Shown piece by piece: positions 3,533 through 63,596 of a DNA stretch of 64,000 bases. Source of the stretch: Escherichia coli (GTDB lineage Bacteria > Pseudomonadota > Gammaproteobacteria > Enterobacterales > Enterobacteriaceae); NCBI RefSeq assembly GCF_003334385.1, contig NZ_QOWN01000003.1; one strand, written 5' to 3'. Position 1 is the stretch's first letter; each line of letters begins with the position of its first letter. Both the position numbers and the translations under genes were made by a program. The notes under the pieces were generated by a model that was not told where the DNA came from, did no database searches, and saw only the letters and a list, made by a program, of their open reading frames with translations.

Positions 3533-4297
3533 TCAGTTCAGGGCTTTCTTCAGATGTTCCGCCAGCTCGGCAATGGCCTCCGGCGAATCGTTATCGATAA
3601 TGATGTGCTTACGTTCTGTTTGCGGCGGTACGCGAATGCCGACCAGTTCAGCAAGTGGCGCGCTCTGGCTCCAGTCAATATCACTTGCCTGCCACTGATT
3701 TACCGGTTTTTTACCCGCGCCGAGAATGGCTTTCATCGAAGGAATGCGTGGCACGTTAATATCGGAGGTGACGCAGAGCACGGCTGGAACAGAGAGTTCA
3801 ATAACTTCAACATCATCTTCAAGCGTGCGTTCAATCACCAGTGTATTGCCCTGACGCTGAATAGCACTCACTGCATTAATCACCGGAAGTTGCAGAATTT
3901 CTCCGACCAGCAAGCCAACCTGCTGGGCATAAAGGTCGCCGGAACCTTCACCAAAGATCAGTAAATCGAAGCCGATCTTTTCAATTGCTGCCGCCAGCGC
4001 TTTTGCGGTATCGAGAGGCAGTGCATGTTCAAGTTGCGCATCCTGCACCAAATACAGGCTGTGCGGCCCGCGGGATAGCACGTCTTTGCGCACTTTCGAG
4101 TTCTGCAACAATGAGCCGCCAACGGTCAGCGCGGCTATCTCATCGTCATCTGTTGCGAGCTGGCTTGCAGCTTCAATGGCATTGAGATCGAACTGGCTGA
4201 TTTTGGCGTCGGCATTGTCGAAATTCAGGGTGTATTCTGGAGTGACAACAATGTCCTGTTCTTCAGGCACCAGCTTAAAGCAGGTTATTATTTTCAT
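3533..4297 (-). CDS. ydiQ: electron transfer flavoprotein, beta-type subunit (FixA-like)
   Basis: ORF track gives 3533..4396; likely start is the internal ATG at 4295-4297 (MKIITCFKLVPEEQD...), preceded by a Shine-Dalgarno-like AGGAGA, giving about 254 aa. Confidence 0.8.
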   Translation of the reverse strand: MKIITCFKLVPEEQDIVVTPEYTLNFDNADAKISQFDLNAIEAASQLATDDDEIAALTVGGSLLQNSKVRKDVLSRGPHSLYLVQDAQLEHALPLDTAKALAAAIEKIGFDLLIFGEGSGDLYAQQVGLLVGEILQLPVINAVSAIQRQGNTLVIERTLEDDVEVIELSVPAVLCVTSDINVPRIPSMKAILGAGKKPVNQWQASDIDWSQSAPLAELVGIRVPPQTERKHIIIDNDSPEAIAELAEHLKKALN

Positions 4298-4612
4298 GAT
4301 TTCTCCTGTGAGTCGCATACGGAACCATCTCCGATGGAAGGTAAAAATGGCCTGAAAATAGTGTGCGATAGCGGTGCGGGGTTTTCGACGGAGCAAGCTG
4401 TTTTCCTTGCCAACAATCTTGCAAAAAAAATGCGATCGCTAAAACAAAAGTGCAATTTGCGGCAATATAGTTATTCCATGACCGTACAATCTTGCATTCA
4501 GTGTAAATAATCTTGTTTAGCTCTCGCTAAACGCGGTTGTATAACCGCAATACACGCCGTATTTTATCCGGCATATATTGTTTTTGCTTGCTCATGGAAT
4601 AGGGAGGTTGTC

Positions 4613-5524
4613 ATGTATCAACGCTGTTTTGATAACGCCAGTGAAACGCTGTTTGTCGCCGGTAAAACGCCACGGCTTTCACGTTTTGCATTTAGCGATG
4701 ATCCAAAATGGGAGTCCGGACATCACGTTCATGACAATGAAACCGAGTTGATTTACGTCAAGAAAGGGGTTGCAAGGTTTACCATCGATTCTTCGTTATA
4801 TGTCGCACATGCGGATGACATTGTGGTGATAGAACGCGGCAGGCTGCATGCGGTGGCCTCTGACGTTAACGATCCGGCAACGACGTGTACCTGTGCGCTG
4901 TACGGCTTTCAGTTTCAGGGGGCTGAGGAAAATCAGCTACTGCAACCGCATTCTTGTCCGGTAATTGCCGCGGGGCAGGGAAAAGAAGTCATAAAAACCT
5001 TATTTAATGAGCTAAGTGTGATTTTGCCGCAAAGTAAAAATAGCCAAACATCTTCGTTATGGGATGCATTTGCCTATACGTTAGCCATTCTTTACTACGA
5101 AAATTTTAAAAATGCTTATCGTTCGGAGCAGGGGTATATTAAAAAAGATGTTCTGATAAAAGATATTCTTTTCTATCTGAATAATAATTATCGCGAAAAA
5201 ATCACTTTAGAACAGTTATCGAAAAAATTTCGTGCCAGCGTCAGTTATATTTGCCATGAATTTACCAAAGAGTATCGTATTTCCCCTATTAACTATGTTA
5301 TTCAACGGCGTATGACGGAAGCAAAATGGTCACTCACTAATACTGAATTATCACAGGCAGAGATCTCCTGGCGTGTGGGTTATGAAAATGTCGATCACTT
5401 TGCCAAACTGTTTTTGCGCCATGTCGGTTGTTCGCCCAGCGATTACCGTAGACAATTTAAAAACTGTTTTGCGGAACAAGAAATCCTATCTGAATTTCCT
5501 CAACCGGTAAGTCTTGTTGGATAA
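4613..5524 (+). CDS. ydiP: AraC-family transcriptional regulator
   Basis: 303-aa ORF with a C-terminal AraC-type HTH; divergent from ydiQ. Confidence 0.85.
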   Translation: MYQRCFDNASETLFVAGKTPRLSRFAFSDDPKWESGHHVHDNETELIYVKKGVARFTIDSSLYVAHADDIVVIERGRLHAVASDVNDPATTCTCALYGFQFQGAEENQLLQPHSCPVIAAGQGKEVIKTLFNELSVILPQSKNSQTSSLWDAFAYTLAILYYENFKNAYRSEQGYIKKDVLIKDILFYLNNNYREKITLEQLSKKFRASVSYICHEFTKEYRISPINYVIQRRMTEAKWSLTNTELSQAEISWRVGYENVDHFAKLFLRHVGCSPSDYRRQFKNCFAEQEILSEFPQPVSLVG

Positions 5525-5528
5525 ATCT

Positions 5529-5560
5529 GGCGGCGCAGTTTGTTAAGAAGCTGCGCCGCC
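5529..5560. terminator. hairpin between convergent ydiP and ydiO (possible bidirectional terminator)
   Basis: Inverted repeat GGCGGCGCAG ... CTGCGCCGCC with a 12-nt loop in the 42-nt convergent gap. Confidence 0.4.
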
Positions 5561-5566
5561 TGCAGA

Positions 5567-6718
5567 TTATTTGTTCTGATAGTCTTTCAGGATCTGCCGA
5601 CCTGCTACGTAAATCATAATTTCGTCTGTACCGCCGCCGATACGTTCACAACGGACATCACGCCAGAAGCGGGAGACGCGCGCCTCATCGGTATAGCCCA
5701 GACCGCCCATGATTTGAATCGCATCATCAATGACTTCCATTGCGGTACGTGCACAGTACAGTTTTGCCAGCGCCGCGCTGGTGCGCAGTGACTGATGCTG
5801 ATCGGCTTGCCATGCCACTTTCAGCACCATGTTGCGCATGTTGTCGATCTTAATCGCCATCAGCGCCAGTTTTTCCTGGATCATCTGGTTATGACCAATG
5901 GGCTTACCAAAAGCGATACGTTGGTTGGCATAGCGGGCGGCATCTTCAAAGGCGCATTCGGCAAAGCCGGTGCTGCGCGCGGCGTTGATCAGGCGCTCCA
6001 TCTCAAAGTTGTACATCACATTGAGGAAACCCATTCCTTCTTCGCCCACCATGTCGCTCTCTTCAACCTCCACGTTGTCGAGATAGACTTCGCAGGTGCT
6101 GAGCATATGCCAGCCGATTTTATGCAGCGGGTTAATCTTAATGCCGGGCTTACTGGAGTCGACCCACCACAGGGTGAAGGCTTTTTTGGGATCTTTCGGT
6201 TGCGGATCGCGCGCCAGCACCAGCATATACGGGTACTCTTTCGCACCGGTAATAAAGGTTTTTTGTCCGTTGATGTAGACCTTGCCGTTTTTACGCGTGT
6301 AAGTGGTAGTGGCACTGTTGTTATCTGAGCCAGCACCTGGTTCCGTCAACGCCAGGGCATAGGCGGGATCACCCGTTTCCAGGGTGCTCTCTGCCGTTTT
6401 ACGTAGCTGCTCTGCAGAACCGAAACGGCGCATACTGTGAATACATTGACCGTTGGTAATTAAAAATGCCGGAGCACCGCATTTTGACACTTCCATCAGC
6501 GCCAGCATTTGGGTGACGTAATCCGCAGGGATACCACCAAATTCTTCCGGCACGCCAAGCATGGAAATACCGTTATCCGCCAGCGCCCGCATAAACTCAC
6601 GCGGATATGTCCCGTTTTGATCGCAGGTGCGGAAATACTCTTCCGGAAAGTTAGTCGTAATCAGTTCGCGAATACTGGCCAGCAGCAGTTCTTGTTCTTC
6701 AGTTAAAGAAAAATCCAT
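5567..6718 (-). CDS. ydiO: acyl-CoA dehydrogenase family protein
   Basis: ORF track 5567..6772; start taken at ATG 6716-6718 (MDFSLTEEQELLL...), about 383 aa. Confidence 0.85.
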   Translation of the reverse strand: MDFSLTEEQELLLASIRELITTNFPEEYFRTCDQNGTYPREFMRALADNGISMLGVPEEFGGIPADYVTQMLALMEVSKCGAPAFLITNGQCIHSMRRFGSAEQLRKTAESTLETGDPAYALALTEPGAGSDNNSATTTYTRKNGKVYINGQKTFITGAKEYPYMLVLARDPQPKDPKKAFTLWWVDSSKPGIKINPLHKIGWHMLSTCEVYLDNVEVEESDMVGEEGMGFLNVMYNFEMERLINAARSTGFAECAFEDAARYANQRIAFGKPIGHNQMIQEKLALMAIKIDNMRNMVLKVAWQADQHQSLRTSAALAKLYCARTAMEVIDDAIQIMGGLGYTDEARVSRFWRDVRCERIGGGTDEIMIYVAGRQILKDYQNK

Positions 6719-57963: not shown

Positions 57964-58065
57964 GCGTTGGAGTGTAGTAGACCAGTCGGTCTAGTGCAAG
58001 CAAAGTTGCTACTTTGGACATTAACAGCTTCAATAATGGTAATAATCTTATCTGAGGAGGGCGAA

Positions 58066-58305
58066 GTGGCGGAGCAATTAGAGTTCTTTCCCGTCCAGAG
58101 CCCGTGCCGGGGAATTTGCCAGTCTGACGAACGCGGGTTTTGTCGCGGCTGTTTTCGTAGTCGTGATGAGCGTTTTAACTGGAATAAAATGAGCGATGGC
58201 GAAAAACAAGAGGTGCTGCGCCTTTGTCGGCAGCGATTAATGCGCAAATTACGCGCAAATAAGCCAGCGTCATCAGACGAACCGGAGCAACCATCACTCT
58301 TTTGA
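58066..58305 (+). CDS. ydhL: small Cys-rich protein (DUF1289)
   Basis: ORF track 57895..58305; likely GTG start at 58066 (VAEQLEFFPVQSPCRGICQSDERGFCRGCF...), preceded by GAGGAGG Shine-Dalgarno; about 79 aa. Confidence 0.65.
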   Translation: MAEQLEFFPVQSPCRGICQSDERGFCRGCFRSRDERFNWNKMSDGEKQEVLRLCRQRLMRKLRANKPASSDEPEQPSLF

Positions 58306-58353
58306 ACCTAATCTTGCGTATACTCCTCTCATATCTGATAAGAGGAAGCGATT

Positions 58354-59250
58354 ATGGTTCAGCGTATTACTATTGCGCCGCAAGGCCCGGAGTTTTCCCG
58401 TTTTGTGATGGGCTACTGGCGATTGATGGACTGGAATATGTCCGCCCGCCAGCTGGTCAGTTTTATTGAAGAGCATCTGGATCTCGGCGTGACCACCGTG
58501 GACCATGCTGATATTTATGGTGGCTATCAGTGCGAAGCGGCGTTTGGCGAGGCACTGAAACTGGCACCTCACCTGCGTGAACGGATGGAAATCGTCAGTA
58601 AATGCGGTATCGCGACGACCGCGCGTGAAGAAAACGTCATTGGTCATTACATCACTGACCGCGATCACATCATTAAGAGCGCCGAACAGTCGCTAATTAA
58701 TCTCGCGACCGATCATCTGGATTTGCTGTTAATCCACCGACCAGACCCGTTAATGGATGCCGATGAAGTGGCGGACGCGTTCAAACATCTGCATCAGAGC
58801 GGCAAAGTGCGTCATTTTGGCGTATCGAACTTTACGCCTGCGCAATTTGCCCTGTTGCAATCACGTCTGCCGTTTACCCTTGCCACTAATCAGGTGGAAA
58901 TATCCCCGGTGCATCAGCCGTTACTGCTGGATGGCACGCTCGACCAACTACAACAACTGCGTGTTCGTCCGATGGCGTGGTCCTGCCTTGGTGGTGGTCG
59001 TCTGTTTAATGATGATTATTTCCAGCCGCTGCGTGATGAACTGGCTGTGGTGGCAGAGGAGTTAAACGCGGGCTCGATTGAACAGGTGGTTTACGCCTGG
59101 GTATTACGTTTACCATCGCAGCCGCTGCCAATTATCGGTTCAGGTAAAATTGAGCGCGTACGGGCAGCTGTCGAAGCAGAAACACTGAAAATGACCCGTC
59201 AACAATGGTTTCGTATCCGTAAAGCGGCACTGGGGTACGACGTACCGTAA
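58354..59250 (+). CDS. ydhF: aldo-keto reductase family oxidoreductase
   Basis: 298-aa ORF. Confidence 0.85.
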   Translation: MVQRITIAPQGPEFSRFVMGYWRLMDWNMSARQLVSFIEEHLDLGVTTVDHADIYGGYQCEAAFGEALKLAPHLRERMEIVSKCGIATTAREENVIGHYITDRDHIIKSAEQSLINLATDHLDLLLIHRPDPLMDADEVADAFKHLHQSGKVRHFGVSNFTPAQFALLQSRLPFTLATNQVEISPVHQPLLLDGTLDQLQQLRVRPMAWSCLGGGRLFNDDYFQPLRDELAVVAEELNAGSIEQVVYAWVLRLPSQPLPIIGSGKIERVRAAVEAETLKMTRQQWFRIRKAALGYDVP

Positions 59251-59330
59251 GCACTTTTAGGAATAGCCGCCGTTCAAAAATGTGTCACTGGTTTACACTT
59301 ATTCAGGAATGCACAATGAACGGAGGTCCT

Positions 59331-59852
59331 ATGAAACGTTTTAGTCTGGCTATTCTGGCGCTGGTTGTTGCAACCGGCGCACAAGCTGCCAGTGAAAAAG
59401 TCGAGATGAACCTCGTCACGTCGCAAGGGGTAGGGCAGTCAATTGGTAGCGTCACCATTACTGAAACCGATAAAGGTCTGGAGTTTTCGCCCGATCTGAA
59501 AGCATTACCCCCCGGTGAACATGGCTTCCATATTCATGCCAAAGGAAGCTGCCAGCCAGCCACCAAAGATGGCAAAGCCAGCGCCGCGGAATCCGCAGGC
59601 GGGCATCTTGATCCACAAAATACCGGTAAACATGAAGGGCCAGAAGGTGCCGGGCATTTAGGCGATCTGCCTGCACTGGTCGTCAATAATGACGGCAAAG
59701 CTACCGATGCCGTCATCGCGCCTCGTCTGAAATCACTGGATGAAATCAAAGACAAAGCGCTGATGGTCCACGTTGGCGGCGATAATATGTCCGATCAACC
59801 TAAACCGCTGGGCGGTGGCGGTGAACGCTATGCCTGTGGTGTAATTAAGTAA
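59331..59852 (+). CDS. sodC: periplasmic Cu/Zn superoxide dismutase
   Basis: ORF track 59280..59852; start taken at ATG 59331 (MKRFSLAILALVVATGAQA signal peptide), about 173 aa; His-rich metal-binding motifs. Confidence 0.9.
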   Translation: MKRFSLAILALVVATGAQAASEKVEMNLVTSQGVGQSIGSVTITETDKGLEFSPDLKALPPGEHGFHIHAKGSCQPATKDGKASAAESAGGHLDPQNTGKHEGPEGAGHLGDLPALVVNNDGKATDAVIAPRLKSLDEIKDKALMVHVGGDNMSDQPKPLGGGGERYACGVIK

Positions 59853-61865
59853 TTAAGAGGCCAGCGTACCTTGCGGTGGTGCTTGCTCAAGTTGCGAAAG
59901 CGAGCAGTACAGCCGCCAGACAATTGCCGCCAGCTCACGGGCGGCAGGTTGATGATGACGGGCAAGGCTGTCGCAAATCCGCTGTAATTCTTCAAGTGTG
60001 GCCGCCAGTGATTTTTGCTGAACGCCACGCTCACTCATCACTCCCCGCAACAGTGAAATACAGTTATCCCGTACTCGCGATAACGGATCGGAACGCGATT
60101 CCCAGTCGCGCAATTGCCAGACAACATGAGAACAGTTCAGCAGCACTACACCCCAGCGTAATAACCAACGGCGAGCCAGCGCATCCTGGCTGTTACTCAA
60201 CTGACTGACGTGATGATAAGTGAGCGATTCAAATTCGCTTTCACTCAGTGTTGGATGGCGGCTTAGCTGATCGACAAAATCCCGGCGCAGCGCGCGAATA
60301 TGGCGGCGGCTTTTACGAGCATCCGATCCTGGACGCAGAATGGCGAACTCTAACCACGCCAACGCGACGCCAACGATTTTTGCCAGATTCTCGTTAAGAA
60401 AATCAGCAAAATCATACACCGGGGGATTAGTGACAGCGATAAAAGAACCCATAAAAACAATCAGTTGCCCCCACAATGCGGCAAATTTTGGCATCTGCAA
60501 TTTAAGAAGCTGCATTGTCGCCAGCAGTGGAAAGAGAAACAGTAAAAATTGCCACAGATCGCTAATCTGGACCATCAGACCAAATTTGACCACAAAGCTG
60601 AATAGCGAAAGTAACACCAGCGTGCGCATCAGAAGTGACAACGACTTAAACGGTGCTGCGACGGCGGAGTAGAGTACGCAGCTAATTGCTGCCAGCGTTA
60701 ATGCATTGGCACCGGCATCCCATTGCGAAGCAATACTCCATGCGCCAATCATCATCAACGTACAAAATGTACGCAGCCCGCTCCACATAGCTTCGGCGTT
60801 ATCGGTATGACGAGCCAGGCCGGATGTCCGTGGGAGTCTGGTATGATCATCTACACCGCTTTGCAGACGATGTAATTCCTGACTACTTTGCAGATAAAGG
60901 CGGCAAAAATAACGTAGTCGCTGCCAGAAGGCGACGTGCCGATAGTCGGCGACGTTGGTCGGGCGTAGCGGGGCGATAATACGTGCGACGGTGTAAACAT
61001 CTGTTTGCGAACTGGCGAGCGCCGTCAGCAACTGTTCGAGAATTTCTCGTGTGGCACCTGGCGGTGAGGGCCAGTTGAGCAACATACGTCGCAGGCTGGA
61101 GATGACACTGGTCATACGTAATTGCTGGTGGAGCAGCGCATTAAGGCGCGCGTTTTGCTGGCGAAAACGATAGTGGCTCCAGAAAGCCTGGATACGCAGC
61201 AAATTCATGGTCAGTATCTGCCCAATCACCCCTTCATGTGCTGCACGAATGGCATCGGTTGTTTCAGGCTGCCAGAGTAAACTGGCATGTTCCAGTAATC
61301 GGGCGTGCATGTTTTTCAATGCGGTTAAAAGGGCAGTAGCATCGGAACTGCTCGGCAGGATCATCATCATCATGCCGCCGCACAAAATACCGACTATTAC
61401 CTCGCAAACGCGCGCCTGAGCGATATCCCACAGCTGGCTGGCCTCAGTAATATTAACCATCGGAAAGGCGATGATGGCAGCCGTGTAGCCCGCCAGTTGA
61501 AATGCATACGCGACGTTATTCGTGAAGTGCGCACAGGCCCAGGTACAAAAGCCAAGCCACGCCGACATGCTCAATAGAAAAAACCACGGCTCATTGAGCG
61601 TATGCCCGGCAAGAAGCAGTGCCGCAATGGCTCCGAGCAAACTGCCAGCGATGCGTCCGAGGCTTTTGCTGATAACACCGCCAACGGTGGGAAAGCTAAC
61701 CACTGCAGCCGAGGTCATCGCCCAATAGGGTTCATCCAGATTTAAATAATAGGCAACCGTCAGCGCCAGACACATGGCAATGGTATTGCGTAACGCATAA
61801 CGCCATTGCGCCAGCGTGGCCCTGAACCAGGGCAAATTGCGCAAGGACCATGACGATGCGTTCAT
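59853..61865 (-). CDS. ydhK: FUSC-family inner-membrane exporter-like protein
   Basis: 670-aa polytopic ORF; stop codon directly abuts the sodC stop. Confidence 0.82.
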
Positions 61866-62722
61866 TATTGACCTACGGCAATGCTACAGGTGGTGCCCGA
61901 CACCAACGTGACATCGCCTGGGACTTTATCCAGCGCAAAGCGGACGGGAACGCGTTGGGCGAGTCGAACCCAGGGGACGTTAGGTTTAACATCCGGAATA
62001 AGGCTTGAGTCACTTTCAACGCTCTGATCATAAATCGCCCGACCGATACTGGAAACGTGACCCTGTAACGTTTTGTTATCACTATAGAGGGTAATTTGTG
62101 CTGGTGCACCTTCGCGGATATGGCGCAACTTGGTTTCTTCAAAATAACCAATGACGTAAAACGAGTGGCTGTCGACAAGGGCAAACAGCGGTTTCCCGGT
62201 ATCAGCGTAATCGCCGATGCGGGTAGTAAGGTTAGTCACCCATCCACTCACCGGGGCGCGAATTTCCGTTTGCGCCAGTTGCCATTGTGCCTGTTTCAGC
62301 GTCGCCTGTGCGGCATCAACACTGGCCTGCATCGCTTTAACATTGAGGTTAGCGGTATCGAGTTCTTCGGCAGAAATAAAATTTTGTGAGAGATGACGAC
62401 GACGATTCGCTTCGTTATTGGCTTTTGCGAGGTCAGATTGCGCTTTCGCCAGCTGAGCCTGTGCGTTCAGCTCGGCGATCTGAAAGGGCGTTTTATCGAT
62501 CGTGAGCAGAAGATCCCCCGCGTTAACCAGCTGGTTGTCTTTTATATTCAGCTCAACAATACGTCCCGACACCTGTGGGGTGATAGAAACCTGTTCTGCG
62601 CGTATTTTCCCGTCGCGTGTCCACGGAGATTGCATGTAATAATTCCACAGCCACCATCCGGCAAGAACCGCAACTACCGCTACAATGATTGTTGAGAAAT
62701 ACTTAATTGTTTTAATTGACAT
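61865..62722 (-). CDS. ydhJ: HlyD-family membrane-fusion (periplasmic adaptor) protein
   Basis: ORF track 61865..62764; start taken at ATG 62720-62722 ([14 protein letters not shown]...), about 285 aa; N-terminal TM segment. Confidence 0.8.
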
Positions 62723-62724
62723 AG

Positions 62725-62961
62725 TTACCACGCAATCAGTATTGCCAGAGCAAGGCAAACGCAAATCGCAAACAGCGATAAATCCATTAACAAGGGATGC
62801 CAGATGTCACCGGCGTAGATCCAGCCACGAAGCAGGCGGTGTACGACAAGCCAGATGACGAATCCAAACGCGAATGCTTTGAAAAACGGAGGAAAGTAGA
62901 CGGACGCACCGAACACCAGATCTTGTAAGGGCAATCCTGTTGCATTGAGCATAAACTTCAC
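62725..62961 (-). CDS. ydhI: small membrane protein (DUF1656)
   Basis: 78-aa hydrophobic ORF immediately upstream of ydhJ. Confidence 0.75.
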
Positions 62962-63161
62962 AAAGTAGATTCCTTTACGACCGAATATATTGCGTTAGAT
63001 TAATAAATATTCTTTAAGTGCGAAAAATTTACGCGCAATTTCTGAAAAATATGTCTGACGGTAACCAAATGCAGCAATACATTTGTTTTAGCAATACAAT
63101 TGCTGCACACTATTCTAAAAGCCGCATAATATCTTAGCAAGCTAATTATAAGGAGATGAAA

Positions 63162-63596
63162 TTGGAATCGCCACTAGGTTCTGATCTGGCACGGTTGGTG
63201 CGCATATGGCGTGCTCTGATAGACCATCGCCTGAAACCGCTGGAGTTAACACAAACCCATTGGGTTACGTTACACAATATCCATCAGTTACCTCCAGACC
63301 AGTCGCAAATTCAACTGGCAAAAGCGATTGGCATCGAGCAGCCATCACTGGTCCGTACTCTGGACCAACTGGAAGAAAAAGGGTTAATTTCGCGTCAAAC
63401 TTGTGCCAGCGATCGTCGGGCTAAACGTATTAAACTGACGGAAAAGGCAGAGCCGCTGATCAGCGAAATGGAAGCTGTTATTAACAAAACCCGCGCGGAA
63501 ATATTACATGGCATCTCCGCAGAGGAACTGGAGCAACTGATTACGCTCATCGCAAAACTTGAGCATAATATCATTGAGTTACAGGCCAAAGGGTGA
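63162..63596 (+). CDS. slyA: MarR-family transcriptional regulator SlyA
   Basis: ORF track starts at ATG 63156, which directly abuts the Shine-Dalgarno AAGGAG; the TTG at 63162 ([16 protein letters not shown]...) has normal spacing and gives 144 aa. Confidence 0.88.

Follow-up and report, generated by a model that had tools for sequence, protein, structure and literature searches.

Organization of the sodC-ydhK Junction

The DNA analyzed here (the window) is a stretch of 64,000 nucleotides (nt) from Escherichia coli contig NZ_QOWN01000003.1 (RefSeq assembly GCF_003334385.1), and the subject of this report is the junction between two convergent genes in it, sodC, which encodes the periplasmic Cu,Zn superoxide dismutase, and ydhK, the transporter gene of the ydhIJK efflux operon (Table 1). 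The sequence at window positions 59840 to 59859 is tgtaattaag taattaagag. The sodC frame ends with TGT GGT GTA ATT AAG TAA, its stop codon occupying positions 59850 to 59852, and is followed by TTA AGA GGC. Read on the minus strand, the TTA at 59853 to 59855 is the TAA stop codon of a 670-amino-acid (aa) open reading frame (ORF). A preliminary description of this DNA had stated that the sodC stop codon directly touches the complement of the ydhK stop codon, and this is borne out by the sequence as well as by the RefSeq annotation of K-12 and other E. coli. Thus, in K-12 ydhK is annotated at 1722121..1724133 (+) and sodC at 1724134..1724655 (-), and in strain 120899 (locus L001) the same abutment is annotated, with sodC at 4082..4603 and ydhK at 4604..6616. 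A 901-nt query over the junction finds matches of at least 95% identity in all 5426 complete E. coli genomes. The abutment is therefore already annotated, and the overlap of the two transcripts is already published (see below); the junction is real but ordinary.

Both gene ends are secure. Residues 20 to 173 of the SodC protein encoded in the window correspond end to end to the 154-residue chain of PDB entry 1ESO, with 0 mismatches and including the C-terminal Lys. For YdhK, orthologues were compared in a scan that used one genome per species and covered 80 ydhK orthologues, 66 of them with sodC beside ydhK and 14 without sodC; in these 80 species the alignment reaches residues 663 to 670 of 670. 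An annotation artefact, in which one of the genes would end earlier and leave a spacer, is hence practically inconceivable: the stop codons are fixed by the reading frames, the end of SodC by the crystallized protein, and the end of YdhK by homology to its last residues. An earlier end of either gene, which the preliminary description had named as the observation that would overturn it, is already refuted by the same data. At its other end, sodC truly starts at the ATG at 59331, and the mechanically produced ORF list opens at an upstream in-frame ATG at 59280.

Table 1. Positions of genes, repeat, hairpins, and Rho-related regions around the sodC-ydhK junction (window coordinates)
Feature	Position	Strand	Basis or remark
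sodC, periplasmic Cu,Zn superoxide dismutase, 173 aa	59331..59852	+	ORF and translation; PDB 1ESO match; RefSeq annotation of identical DNA
ydhK, FUSC-family transporter of the ydhIJK efflux operon, 670 aa	59853..61865	-	ORF; RefSeq; orthologues
sodC/ydhK junction, 0 nt between coding sequences (CDSs)	59850..59855	both	Sequence; identical K-12 annotation
Two tandem 8-nt units TAATTAAG over both stop codons	59842..59857		Perfect period-8 run at 59841-59857
C-rich, G-poor stretch inside antisense ydhK, candidate Rho loading/termination zone	59970..60216	+	C/G ratio; contains published Rho coordinate
Rho termination region from published data, within ydhK and 605 nt short of its stop	About 60458 (K-12 1723528(+), our own mapping)	-	PMC7815308
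Hairpin of 7 base pairs (bp), GC-rich, TGCCGCC-N8-GGCGGCA, 73-94 nt past the sodC stop	59925..59946	+	Followed by GGTTGATG, no U-tract; not terminator-like
Two adjacent hairpins (59688-59717 and 59718-59760), 93-165 nt past the ydhK stop, antisense to sodC	59688..59760	-	Fold; no U-tract
ydhF, aldo/keto reductase, upstream of sodC on the same strand	58354..59250	+	ORF; RefSeq

Overlapping Transcripts and Rho-Dependent Termination

Normal termination by the ribosome requires mRNA past the stop codon. Each functional mRNA must therefore reach at least about 10 nt into the partner gene, and the transcribed DNA segments necessarily overlap.

This geometry has been captured in published transcriptomes. 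The ydhK-sodC pair is among the 165 convergent excludons that ExcludonFinder detected in at least 50% of 58 RNA sequencing (RNA-seq) samples of MG1655 (Nucleic Acids Research, 2025; PMC12288877), and it has two features of a convergent excludon, namely, adjacent genes on opposite strands that point toward each other, as seen in the ORFs and RefSeq, and overlapping RNA, as documented in the literature (PMC12288877, PMC7373196, PMC7815308). The preliminary description had held that the two transcripts must overlap at their 3' ends. The overlap as such is supported by the published excludome, Rho, and RNA-seq data; the word “must” is slightly too strong, since coexistence of both RNAs needs both promoters to fire in one cell and readthrough from ydhK is weak.

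On the sodC strand, Adams et al. (2021, eLife; PMC7815308, supplementary file 2) listed a Rho termination region, i.e., one sensitive to bicyclomycin (BCM), at K-12 position 1723937 (-) and classed it as antisense to ydhK. The reads upstream and downstream of this position were 74/14 without BCM and 29/28 with BCM (Rho score of 5.1, p = 2.8e-5). This coordinate lies 197 nt past the sodC stop and corresponds to approximately position 60049 on the plus strand of the window, provided that there is no indel within ydhK, which is 2013 nt long in both genomes. It falls within a stretch that begins 118 nt and ends 364 nt past the sodC stop and in which the C/G ratio of 78-nt segments is 1.5 to 1.8, the 90th to 95th percentile of the window. 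Both marks of a Rho-dependent terminator are thus found on the sodC strand: readthrough raised by BCM in published DirectRNA-seq data and C-rich, G-poor untranslated RNA. The wild-type total RNA-seq data of Huang et al. (2020, mBio; PMC7373196, Table S1c), expressed per gene as sense and antisense reads per million (RPM), are in line with such an extension. They give 17.7 sense and 21.0 antisense RPM for ydhK, 17.2 and 1.4 RPM for ydhJ, and 66.4 and 1.5 RPM for sodC. By our own arithmetic, if coverage per nucleotide equals that of sodC, the 21 RPM antisense on ydhK corresponds to some 165 nt, which is consistent with an extension of approximately 200 nt. In the opposite direction, little RNA extends from ydhK into sodC, where the antisense signal is 1.5 RPM.

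On the ydhK strand, the same Rho data set contains a termination region well inside ydhK, at K-12 1723528 (+) (Table 1), with upstream/downstream reads of 54/20 without BCM and 382/449 with BCM. According to these counts, transcription falls to about 40% across this position without BCM in exponential culture in lysogeny broth (LB), so that much of the ydhK transcription under this condition ends before the stop codon of the gene. These data suggest that, during exponential growth in LB, Rho strongly attenuates the ydhIJK operon. Reads upstream of the site on the ydhK strand rose about 7-fold in the presence of BCM (from 54 to 382). For the RNA that does pass the ydhK stop, the C/G ratio is 1.56 in the first 78 nt on the ydhK strand, and the published tables examined list no BCM-sensitive 3' end in this part.

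The curated Term-seq table (PMC7815308) contains no discrete 3' end in K-12 1,723,800-1,724,399, an absence that fits diffuse ends of the Rho type, and the SMRT-Cappable-seq supplements mention neither gene. The junction resembles the Rho termination of readthrough and antisense RNA described in PMC7815308 in that the sodC-strand RNA is untranslated, contains a C-rich, G-poor stretch, and has a BCM-sensitive end antisense to the neighboring gene. It differs in that only one strand is documented here, with a position of low resolution, and that the Rho dependence of the ydhK strand is inferred.

Hairpins near the Junction

The preliminary description had also noted that no hairpin separates the two genes. 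A spacer of zero length cannot hold a hairpin, so the real question is whether a hairpin is embedded in the neighboring CDS. A consensus terminator scan of positions 58200 to 63200 returned 6 sites, compared to 5.8 expected from shuffled sequences, none of them at the junction. A stricter scan of the 250 nt past each stop found no terminator in the window and weak sites in 3 of 66 relatives per side, and Rfam searches over 58000-63000 at an E value of up to 1 gave just two chance-level matches, both away from the junction. Obvious Kluyvera-type hairpins, with their short T-tracts, escaped the strict scan, which demanded at least 5 T in 8, and a hairpin-only scan was therefore used for comparison between species. 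It detected perfect GC-rich hairpins of at least 8 bp within 150 nt past ydhK in none of the 66 sodC-bearing loci and past sodC in 2 of them, and a conserved hairpin past sodC was accordingly rejected. In the window, the folding of the 181 nt that surround and follow the sodC stop is no stronger than that of shuffled sequences (z = -0.37).

The other side is more structured. The 206 nt after the ydhK stop, on the ydhK-sense strand, fold far better than shuffles (z = -3.75), forming the two adjacent hairpins listed in Table 1. In RNAalifold analysis of 67 orthologous segments, there was no consensus structure downstream of ydhK. Measured against the E. coli structure, only 67% of the alignment cells can pair, and in most species the second helix has lost its inner pairs. 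A conserved ydhK terminator hairpin within antisense sodC was rejected on these grounds, strong as the E. coli fold had looked, and the hairpins downstream of ydhK are probably not a terminator. Altogether, a GC-rich stem-loop with a U-tract, and in the bidirectional case with an A-tract in front of it, as expected of an intrinsic or bidirectional terminator past a stop codon, is found neither at nor near the junction, and the statement that no hairpin lies between the genes holds, the hairpins nearby being unconserved.

These observations bear on the idea that each gene carries a terminator embedded in the CDS of its partner, 59688-59717 serving ydhK and 59925-59946 serving sodC, with a fixed Rho-independent overlap of 100-170 nt. 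The strong folding past ydhK speaks for this arrangement, as do a 10-bp stem, its inner part flagged in the consensus scan, that is followed by AUUAUUGA, and the RPM ratios, which by our own arithmetic fit full-coverage extensions of about 165-170 nt on either side. Nevertheless, neither hairpin has a real U-tract, such sites are no commoner than in shuffled sequences and disappear in the stricter scan, the hairpins are not conserved, the region contains no curated Term-seq 3' end, and the 3' region on the sodC strand is sensitive to BCM. We therefore regard embedded terminators as improbable, with roughly one chance in eight.

Even less can be said for bidirectional termination driven by collision, in which converging polymerases would be released within the overlap and leave uniform 3' ends on both strands. 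The convergent geometry with overlapping transcription is that of the model derived from SEnd-seq of convergent E. coli pairs (bioRxiv 10.1101/2022.10.23.513370). That model, however, requires a pause-inducing stem-loop in the overlap, and there is none at this junction; it works best for highly expressed pairs, whereas both sodC and ydhK are lowly expressed in published data; and it involves Rho-independent terminators, as opposed to the Rho-dependent end on the sodC strand. Paired sharp 3' ends are not on record here, with no curated 3' ends and no junction hairpin, and we consider this scenario very unlikely.

A Silent Tandem Repeat over Both Stop Codons

The two stop codons lie in a perfect tandem repeat (Table 1), the sole perfect period-8 repeat of at least 17 nt in the window, for which a first-order Markov simulation gives a mean of 0.31 such repeats per window. 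Its unit, TAATTAAG, carries a stop codon on each strand. The number of copies was typed in the 5426 complete E. coli genomes with a three-copy query, a match of at least 95% being taken as at least three copies and one of 90-95% as that expected for an 8-nt length difference. Two copies, and hence a gap of 0, fit 5348 genomes (~98.6%), and at least three copies fit the remaining 78; a two-copy query gave the mirror-image picture. A match in the range predicted for one copy was seen in none of the 5426 genomes; an allele of that kind would deprive sodC of its stop codon.

Longer alleles could be read directly in three genomes: 3 copies in MCJCHV-1 (L086; gap of 8 nt), 5 in FDAARGOS_1252 (L087; gap of 24 nt), and 6 in isolate AHB7 (L085, about 3533-3580), where sodC and ydhK are annotated 32 nt apart. 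In H23/H24, a match span of 125 nt points to 4 copies (gap of 16 nt), which were not read directly. Many of the three-copy strains may belong to a single clone. The same protein accessions (WP_001298528.1 and WP_001538794.1) are annotated in the 3-, 5-, and 6-copy genomes; additional copies thus alter neither protein. With at least two head-to-tail units and a copy number that differs among strains, this is a variable-number tandem repeat (VNTR), and the zero gap is the majority allele in E. coli, not a fixed one. Like other E. coli VNTRs, it consists of perfect head-to-tail 8-nt units in strain-variable number, as expected of replication slippage. Unlike them, it has a unit with a stop codon in each orientation, lies exactly between two CDSs, and can change in copy number with no effect on either protein, provided that no fewer than two copies are kept.

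In a perfect repeat, slippage clearly does add copies, judging from these alleles. A simple event in which a recent duplication of 8 nt gave rise to the two-copy state and resolved an ancestral overlap like that of Klebsiella, also of 8 nt, is unsupported: sodC loses its stop when one unit is taken out, the second copy matches at only 5 of 8 positions in the phase that such an origin demands, and other Escherichia species have an imperfect repeat (7/8) and yet a zero gap. No published description of the TAATTAAG repeat was found in the searchable literature, and this silent copy-number repeat is a minor new detail of the present work.

The Junction across Enterobacteriaceae

Among the 66 species with sodC beside ydhK, the stop-to-stop gap ranges from -25 to +14 nt, with 21 zero gaps, 37 overlaps, and 8 gaps of +2 to +14 nt. 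The zero gap is found in Escherichia, Citrobacter, and others (21 genomes). The overlaps measure 25 nt in Salmonella (2 genomes), 22 nt in Enterobacter, Lelliottia, Leclercia, and others (19 genomes), 11 nt in Phytobacter diazotrophicus (1 genome), 8 nt in Klebsiella, Raoultella, Kosakonia, and others (14 genomes), and 4 nt in Enterobacteriaceae bacterium UBA7338 (1 genome). Short spacers are found in Buttiauxella (+2 nt, 7 genomes) and Pseudescherichia vulneris (+14 nt, 1 genome). This family-wide range is a second minor new detail of this work.

The two proteins differ in how freely their ends vary. The C-terminus of SodC is constant, ...YACGVI(K/R/H/Q/N), and its Cys forms the conserved disulfide of the family. 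In YdhK, the conserved core ends with ...QAPxxGT(L/I) (...QAPPQGTL in the window) and is followed by a tail of 2 to 11 residues that varies between genera, its sequence being dictated by the antisense reading of the sodC end, e.g., ...ITPQA in Salmonella and Enterobacter. We infer from these alignments that the ydhK stop drifts against a constrained sodC end and that the junction evolves in this way. Covariation of the sodC Ile codon with the ydhK stop, as a comparison of E. coli with Citrobacter would have it, was rejected, as it fails across Citrobacter species.

In the 14 species without sodC, a spacer of 28-150 nt separates ydhK from ydhF, here its convergent partner; in 10 of these species, a perfect GC-rich hairpin of 9-13 bp is located in or at the spacer. 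The hairpin-bearing spacers (L038, L040, L045, L069, L070, L073-L076, and L080), which come from Kluyvera, Trabulsiella, Pluralibacter, and others, are 28-96 nt long; that in L076 contains the hairpin AAAAGCGCCCCTG-N10-CAGGGGCGCTTTT. In Trabulsiella, the ydhK stop codon itself lies in the stem (TGCGGAGTGA...TCACTCCGCA). Thus, a predicted hairpin terminator is usually present where the spacer gives room for it and absent where sodC abuts. Bidirectional intrinsic terminators between convergent genes are known from the same genomic setting and are represented here by the ydhK-ydhF spacers of Kluyvera, Trabulsiella, and other sodC-less species; the window and the 66 sodC-bearing species differ from them in having neither a spacer that holds a terminator nor a comparable hairpin.

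Several loci deserve separate mention. In Escherichia albertii NBRC 107761 (L005:4511-4670), sodC is nearly all deleted, and what separates ydhK from ydhF is ~150 nt of remnants, comprising the final 16 nt of the gene (100% identity), 44 nt from its 3' part, and 42 nt from the promoter-proximal side. This genome retains the original ydhK stop and the junction sequence TAATTACTTAAT. In Enterobacter cloacae DSM 26481 (L025:4516-5032), tblastn finds sodC as two overlapping segments, residues 1-95 (79%) and 48-172 (63%), which suggests a frameshift or a locally divergent stretch. In a contig labeled Chryseobacterium sp. 18061 (L078; CACSKA010000003.1), the ydhK-sodC locus is of the usual enterobacterial kind: YdhK is 75% identical, and the two genes overlap by 8 nt, as in the Klebsiella group. 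This assembly is probably mislabeled or contaminated.

Tight Convergent Junctions in E. coli

The spacing of convergent genes was surveyed in K-12 positions 1,700,001-1,800,000, a sample of 100 kb, not the whole genome. Its 14 convergent pairs have stop-to-stop gaps of 33, 43, 46, 0, 50, 161, -4, 39, 40, 11, 63, 42, 56, and 3 nt. The gap is 11 nt or less in 4 of the 14, and all 4 are listed in the published excludome (PMC12288877), where excludon pairs have shorter spacers than other neighboring pairs. A zero gap such as that of sodC-ydhK is not unusual for E. coli. The other three tight pairs are purR/punR (-4 nt; K-12 1738866-1738869), ydiE/selO (+3 nt; 1789804-1789808), and ydhS/ydhT (+11 nt; 1748735-1748747), tail-to-tail CDSs that likewise have no room for a terminator. 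The latter two are within the chromosome stretch that the window covers, and close tail-to-tail packing recurs in the chromosomal region around sodC-ydhK.

Neutral Packing or Regulatory Device

The two genes have separate regulators. The sodC gene is RpoS dependent and is expressed in aerobic stationary phase (PMC2569942), whereas ydhIJK is a SlyA-repressed fusaric acid efflux operon in Salmonella (PMC6401476) and has been reported to be induced by sigma-E in E. coli (PMC2685091, PMC7075262). Cross-talk between the sigma-S-driven sodC and the SlyA/sigma-E-controlled ydhIJK is conceivable. In one such view, the pair would be a functional convergent excludon, in which selection keeps the spacer absent and either polymerase collision or cleavage of the RNA duplex by RNase III makes the stationary-phase expression of sodC and the stress-induced expression of ydhIJK mutually exclusive. 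Apart from the distinct regulators, this is consistent with the place of the pair in the excludome, with the tight junction kept in 66 species, and with the double-stranded RNA captured by p19, which amounts to 43-103 RPM for ydhK and 8-57 RPM for sodC, compared to 3-8 RPM for ydhF (PMC7373196). In that data set, however, the single p19 hotspot listed for ydhK maps roughly 830 nt from the start of the gene, not at its 3' end, and in two rnc mutants neither sodC nor ydhK RNA goes up, both dropping along with their neighbors, so that RNase III-mediated mutual decay is unsupported by these data. Further, E. coli tolerates 8-32 nt of extra spacer, sodC has been lost in E. albertii and is absent in 13 other species, and E. 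coli pairs with low expression often have close junctions of this kind. The pair is like the published convergent excludons in its 3' overlap and is itself listed among them; it differs in that the concept implies mutual repression, with no RNA stabilization seen here in the published rnc mutants, and in that the overlap is wholly within coding sequence, with no intergenic DNA. We consider a functional excludon unlikely, although it is the least improbable of the alternatives to simple packing.

A further reading assumes cross-regulation maintained by selection across Enterobacteriaceae: transcription from sodC, extending about 200 nt into ydhK, would damp the completion or stability of the ydhIJK mRNA in aerobic stationary phase, the reverse would happen upon induction of ydhIJK, and the copy number of TAATTAAG would be neutral or weakly tuning. 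We give this reading about one chance in ten.

In our opinion, the junction is quite probably an ordinary, long-standing case of tail-to-tail packing of two unrelated genes and not a special device. With the C-terminus of SodC fixed by function and the last residues of YdhK free, small indels and point changes would shift the ydhK stop into or out of the end of sodC, and replication slippage can add copies of TAATTAAG with neither protein changed. There is no room for a terminator and none embedded nearby, so that each RNA polymerase transcribes into the partner gene. The sodC-strand RNA runs about 200 nt into antisense ydhK, where, as the published K-12 data show, Rho ends the transcripts on the C-rich untranslated stretch. 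Transcripts of the ydhK strand are rare, partly because Rho already acts within ydhK, and the few that reach the end of the gene are probably stopped by Rho inside antisense sodC, as the C/G ratio of 1.56 suggests. The junction would accordingly reflect neutral compaction rather than a regulatory device.

Several points weigh against this account. The position of the Rho site is approximate, as it comes from 800-nt comparison windows and one condition (LB, optical density of 0.5), in which sodC is poorly expressed and the read counts at the site are low (74/14). A mapped 3' end of ydhK transcripts was not found in the literature, and the composition of the Rho site was computed for this window alone. 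The strongly folding hairpin pair past ydhK (z = -3.75) might serve as a pause site or stabilizer particular to E. coli. Finally, the tight junction could be kept throughout the family by selection rather than neutral drift, descent and constraint being inseparable in these data.

Implications

As a discovery, the junction carries little weight, with the abutment present in every E. coli annotation and the overlap already catalogued. The natural allele series found in E. coli, with gaps of 0, 8, 16, 24, and 32 nt, could be used to test the effect of spacer length on interference between convergent genes. The locus is a clean worked example of how a bacterium copes without an intergenic terminator, with Rho clearing the untranslated readthrough inside the neighboring gene. 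Across the family, it would exemplify how the stop codon of a less constrained gene drifts against a constrained one and how, once the inner gene is lost, a hairpin terminator is found in the resulting spacer.

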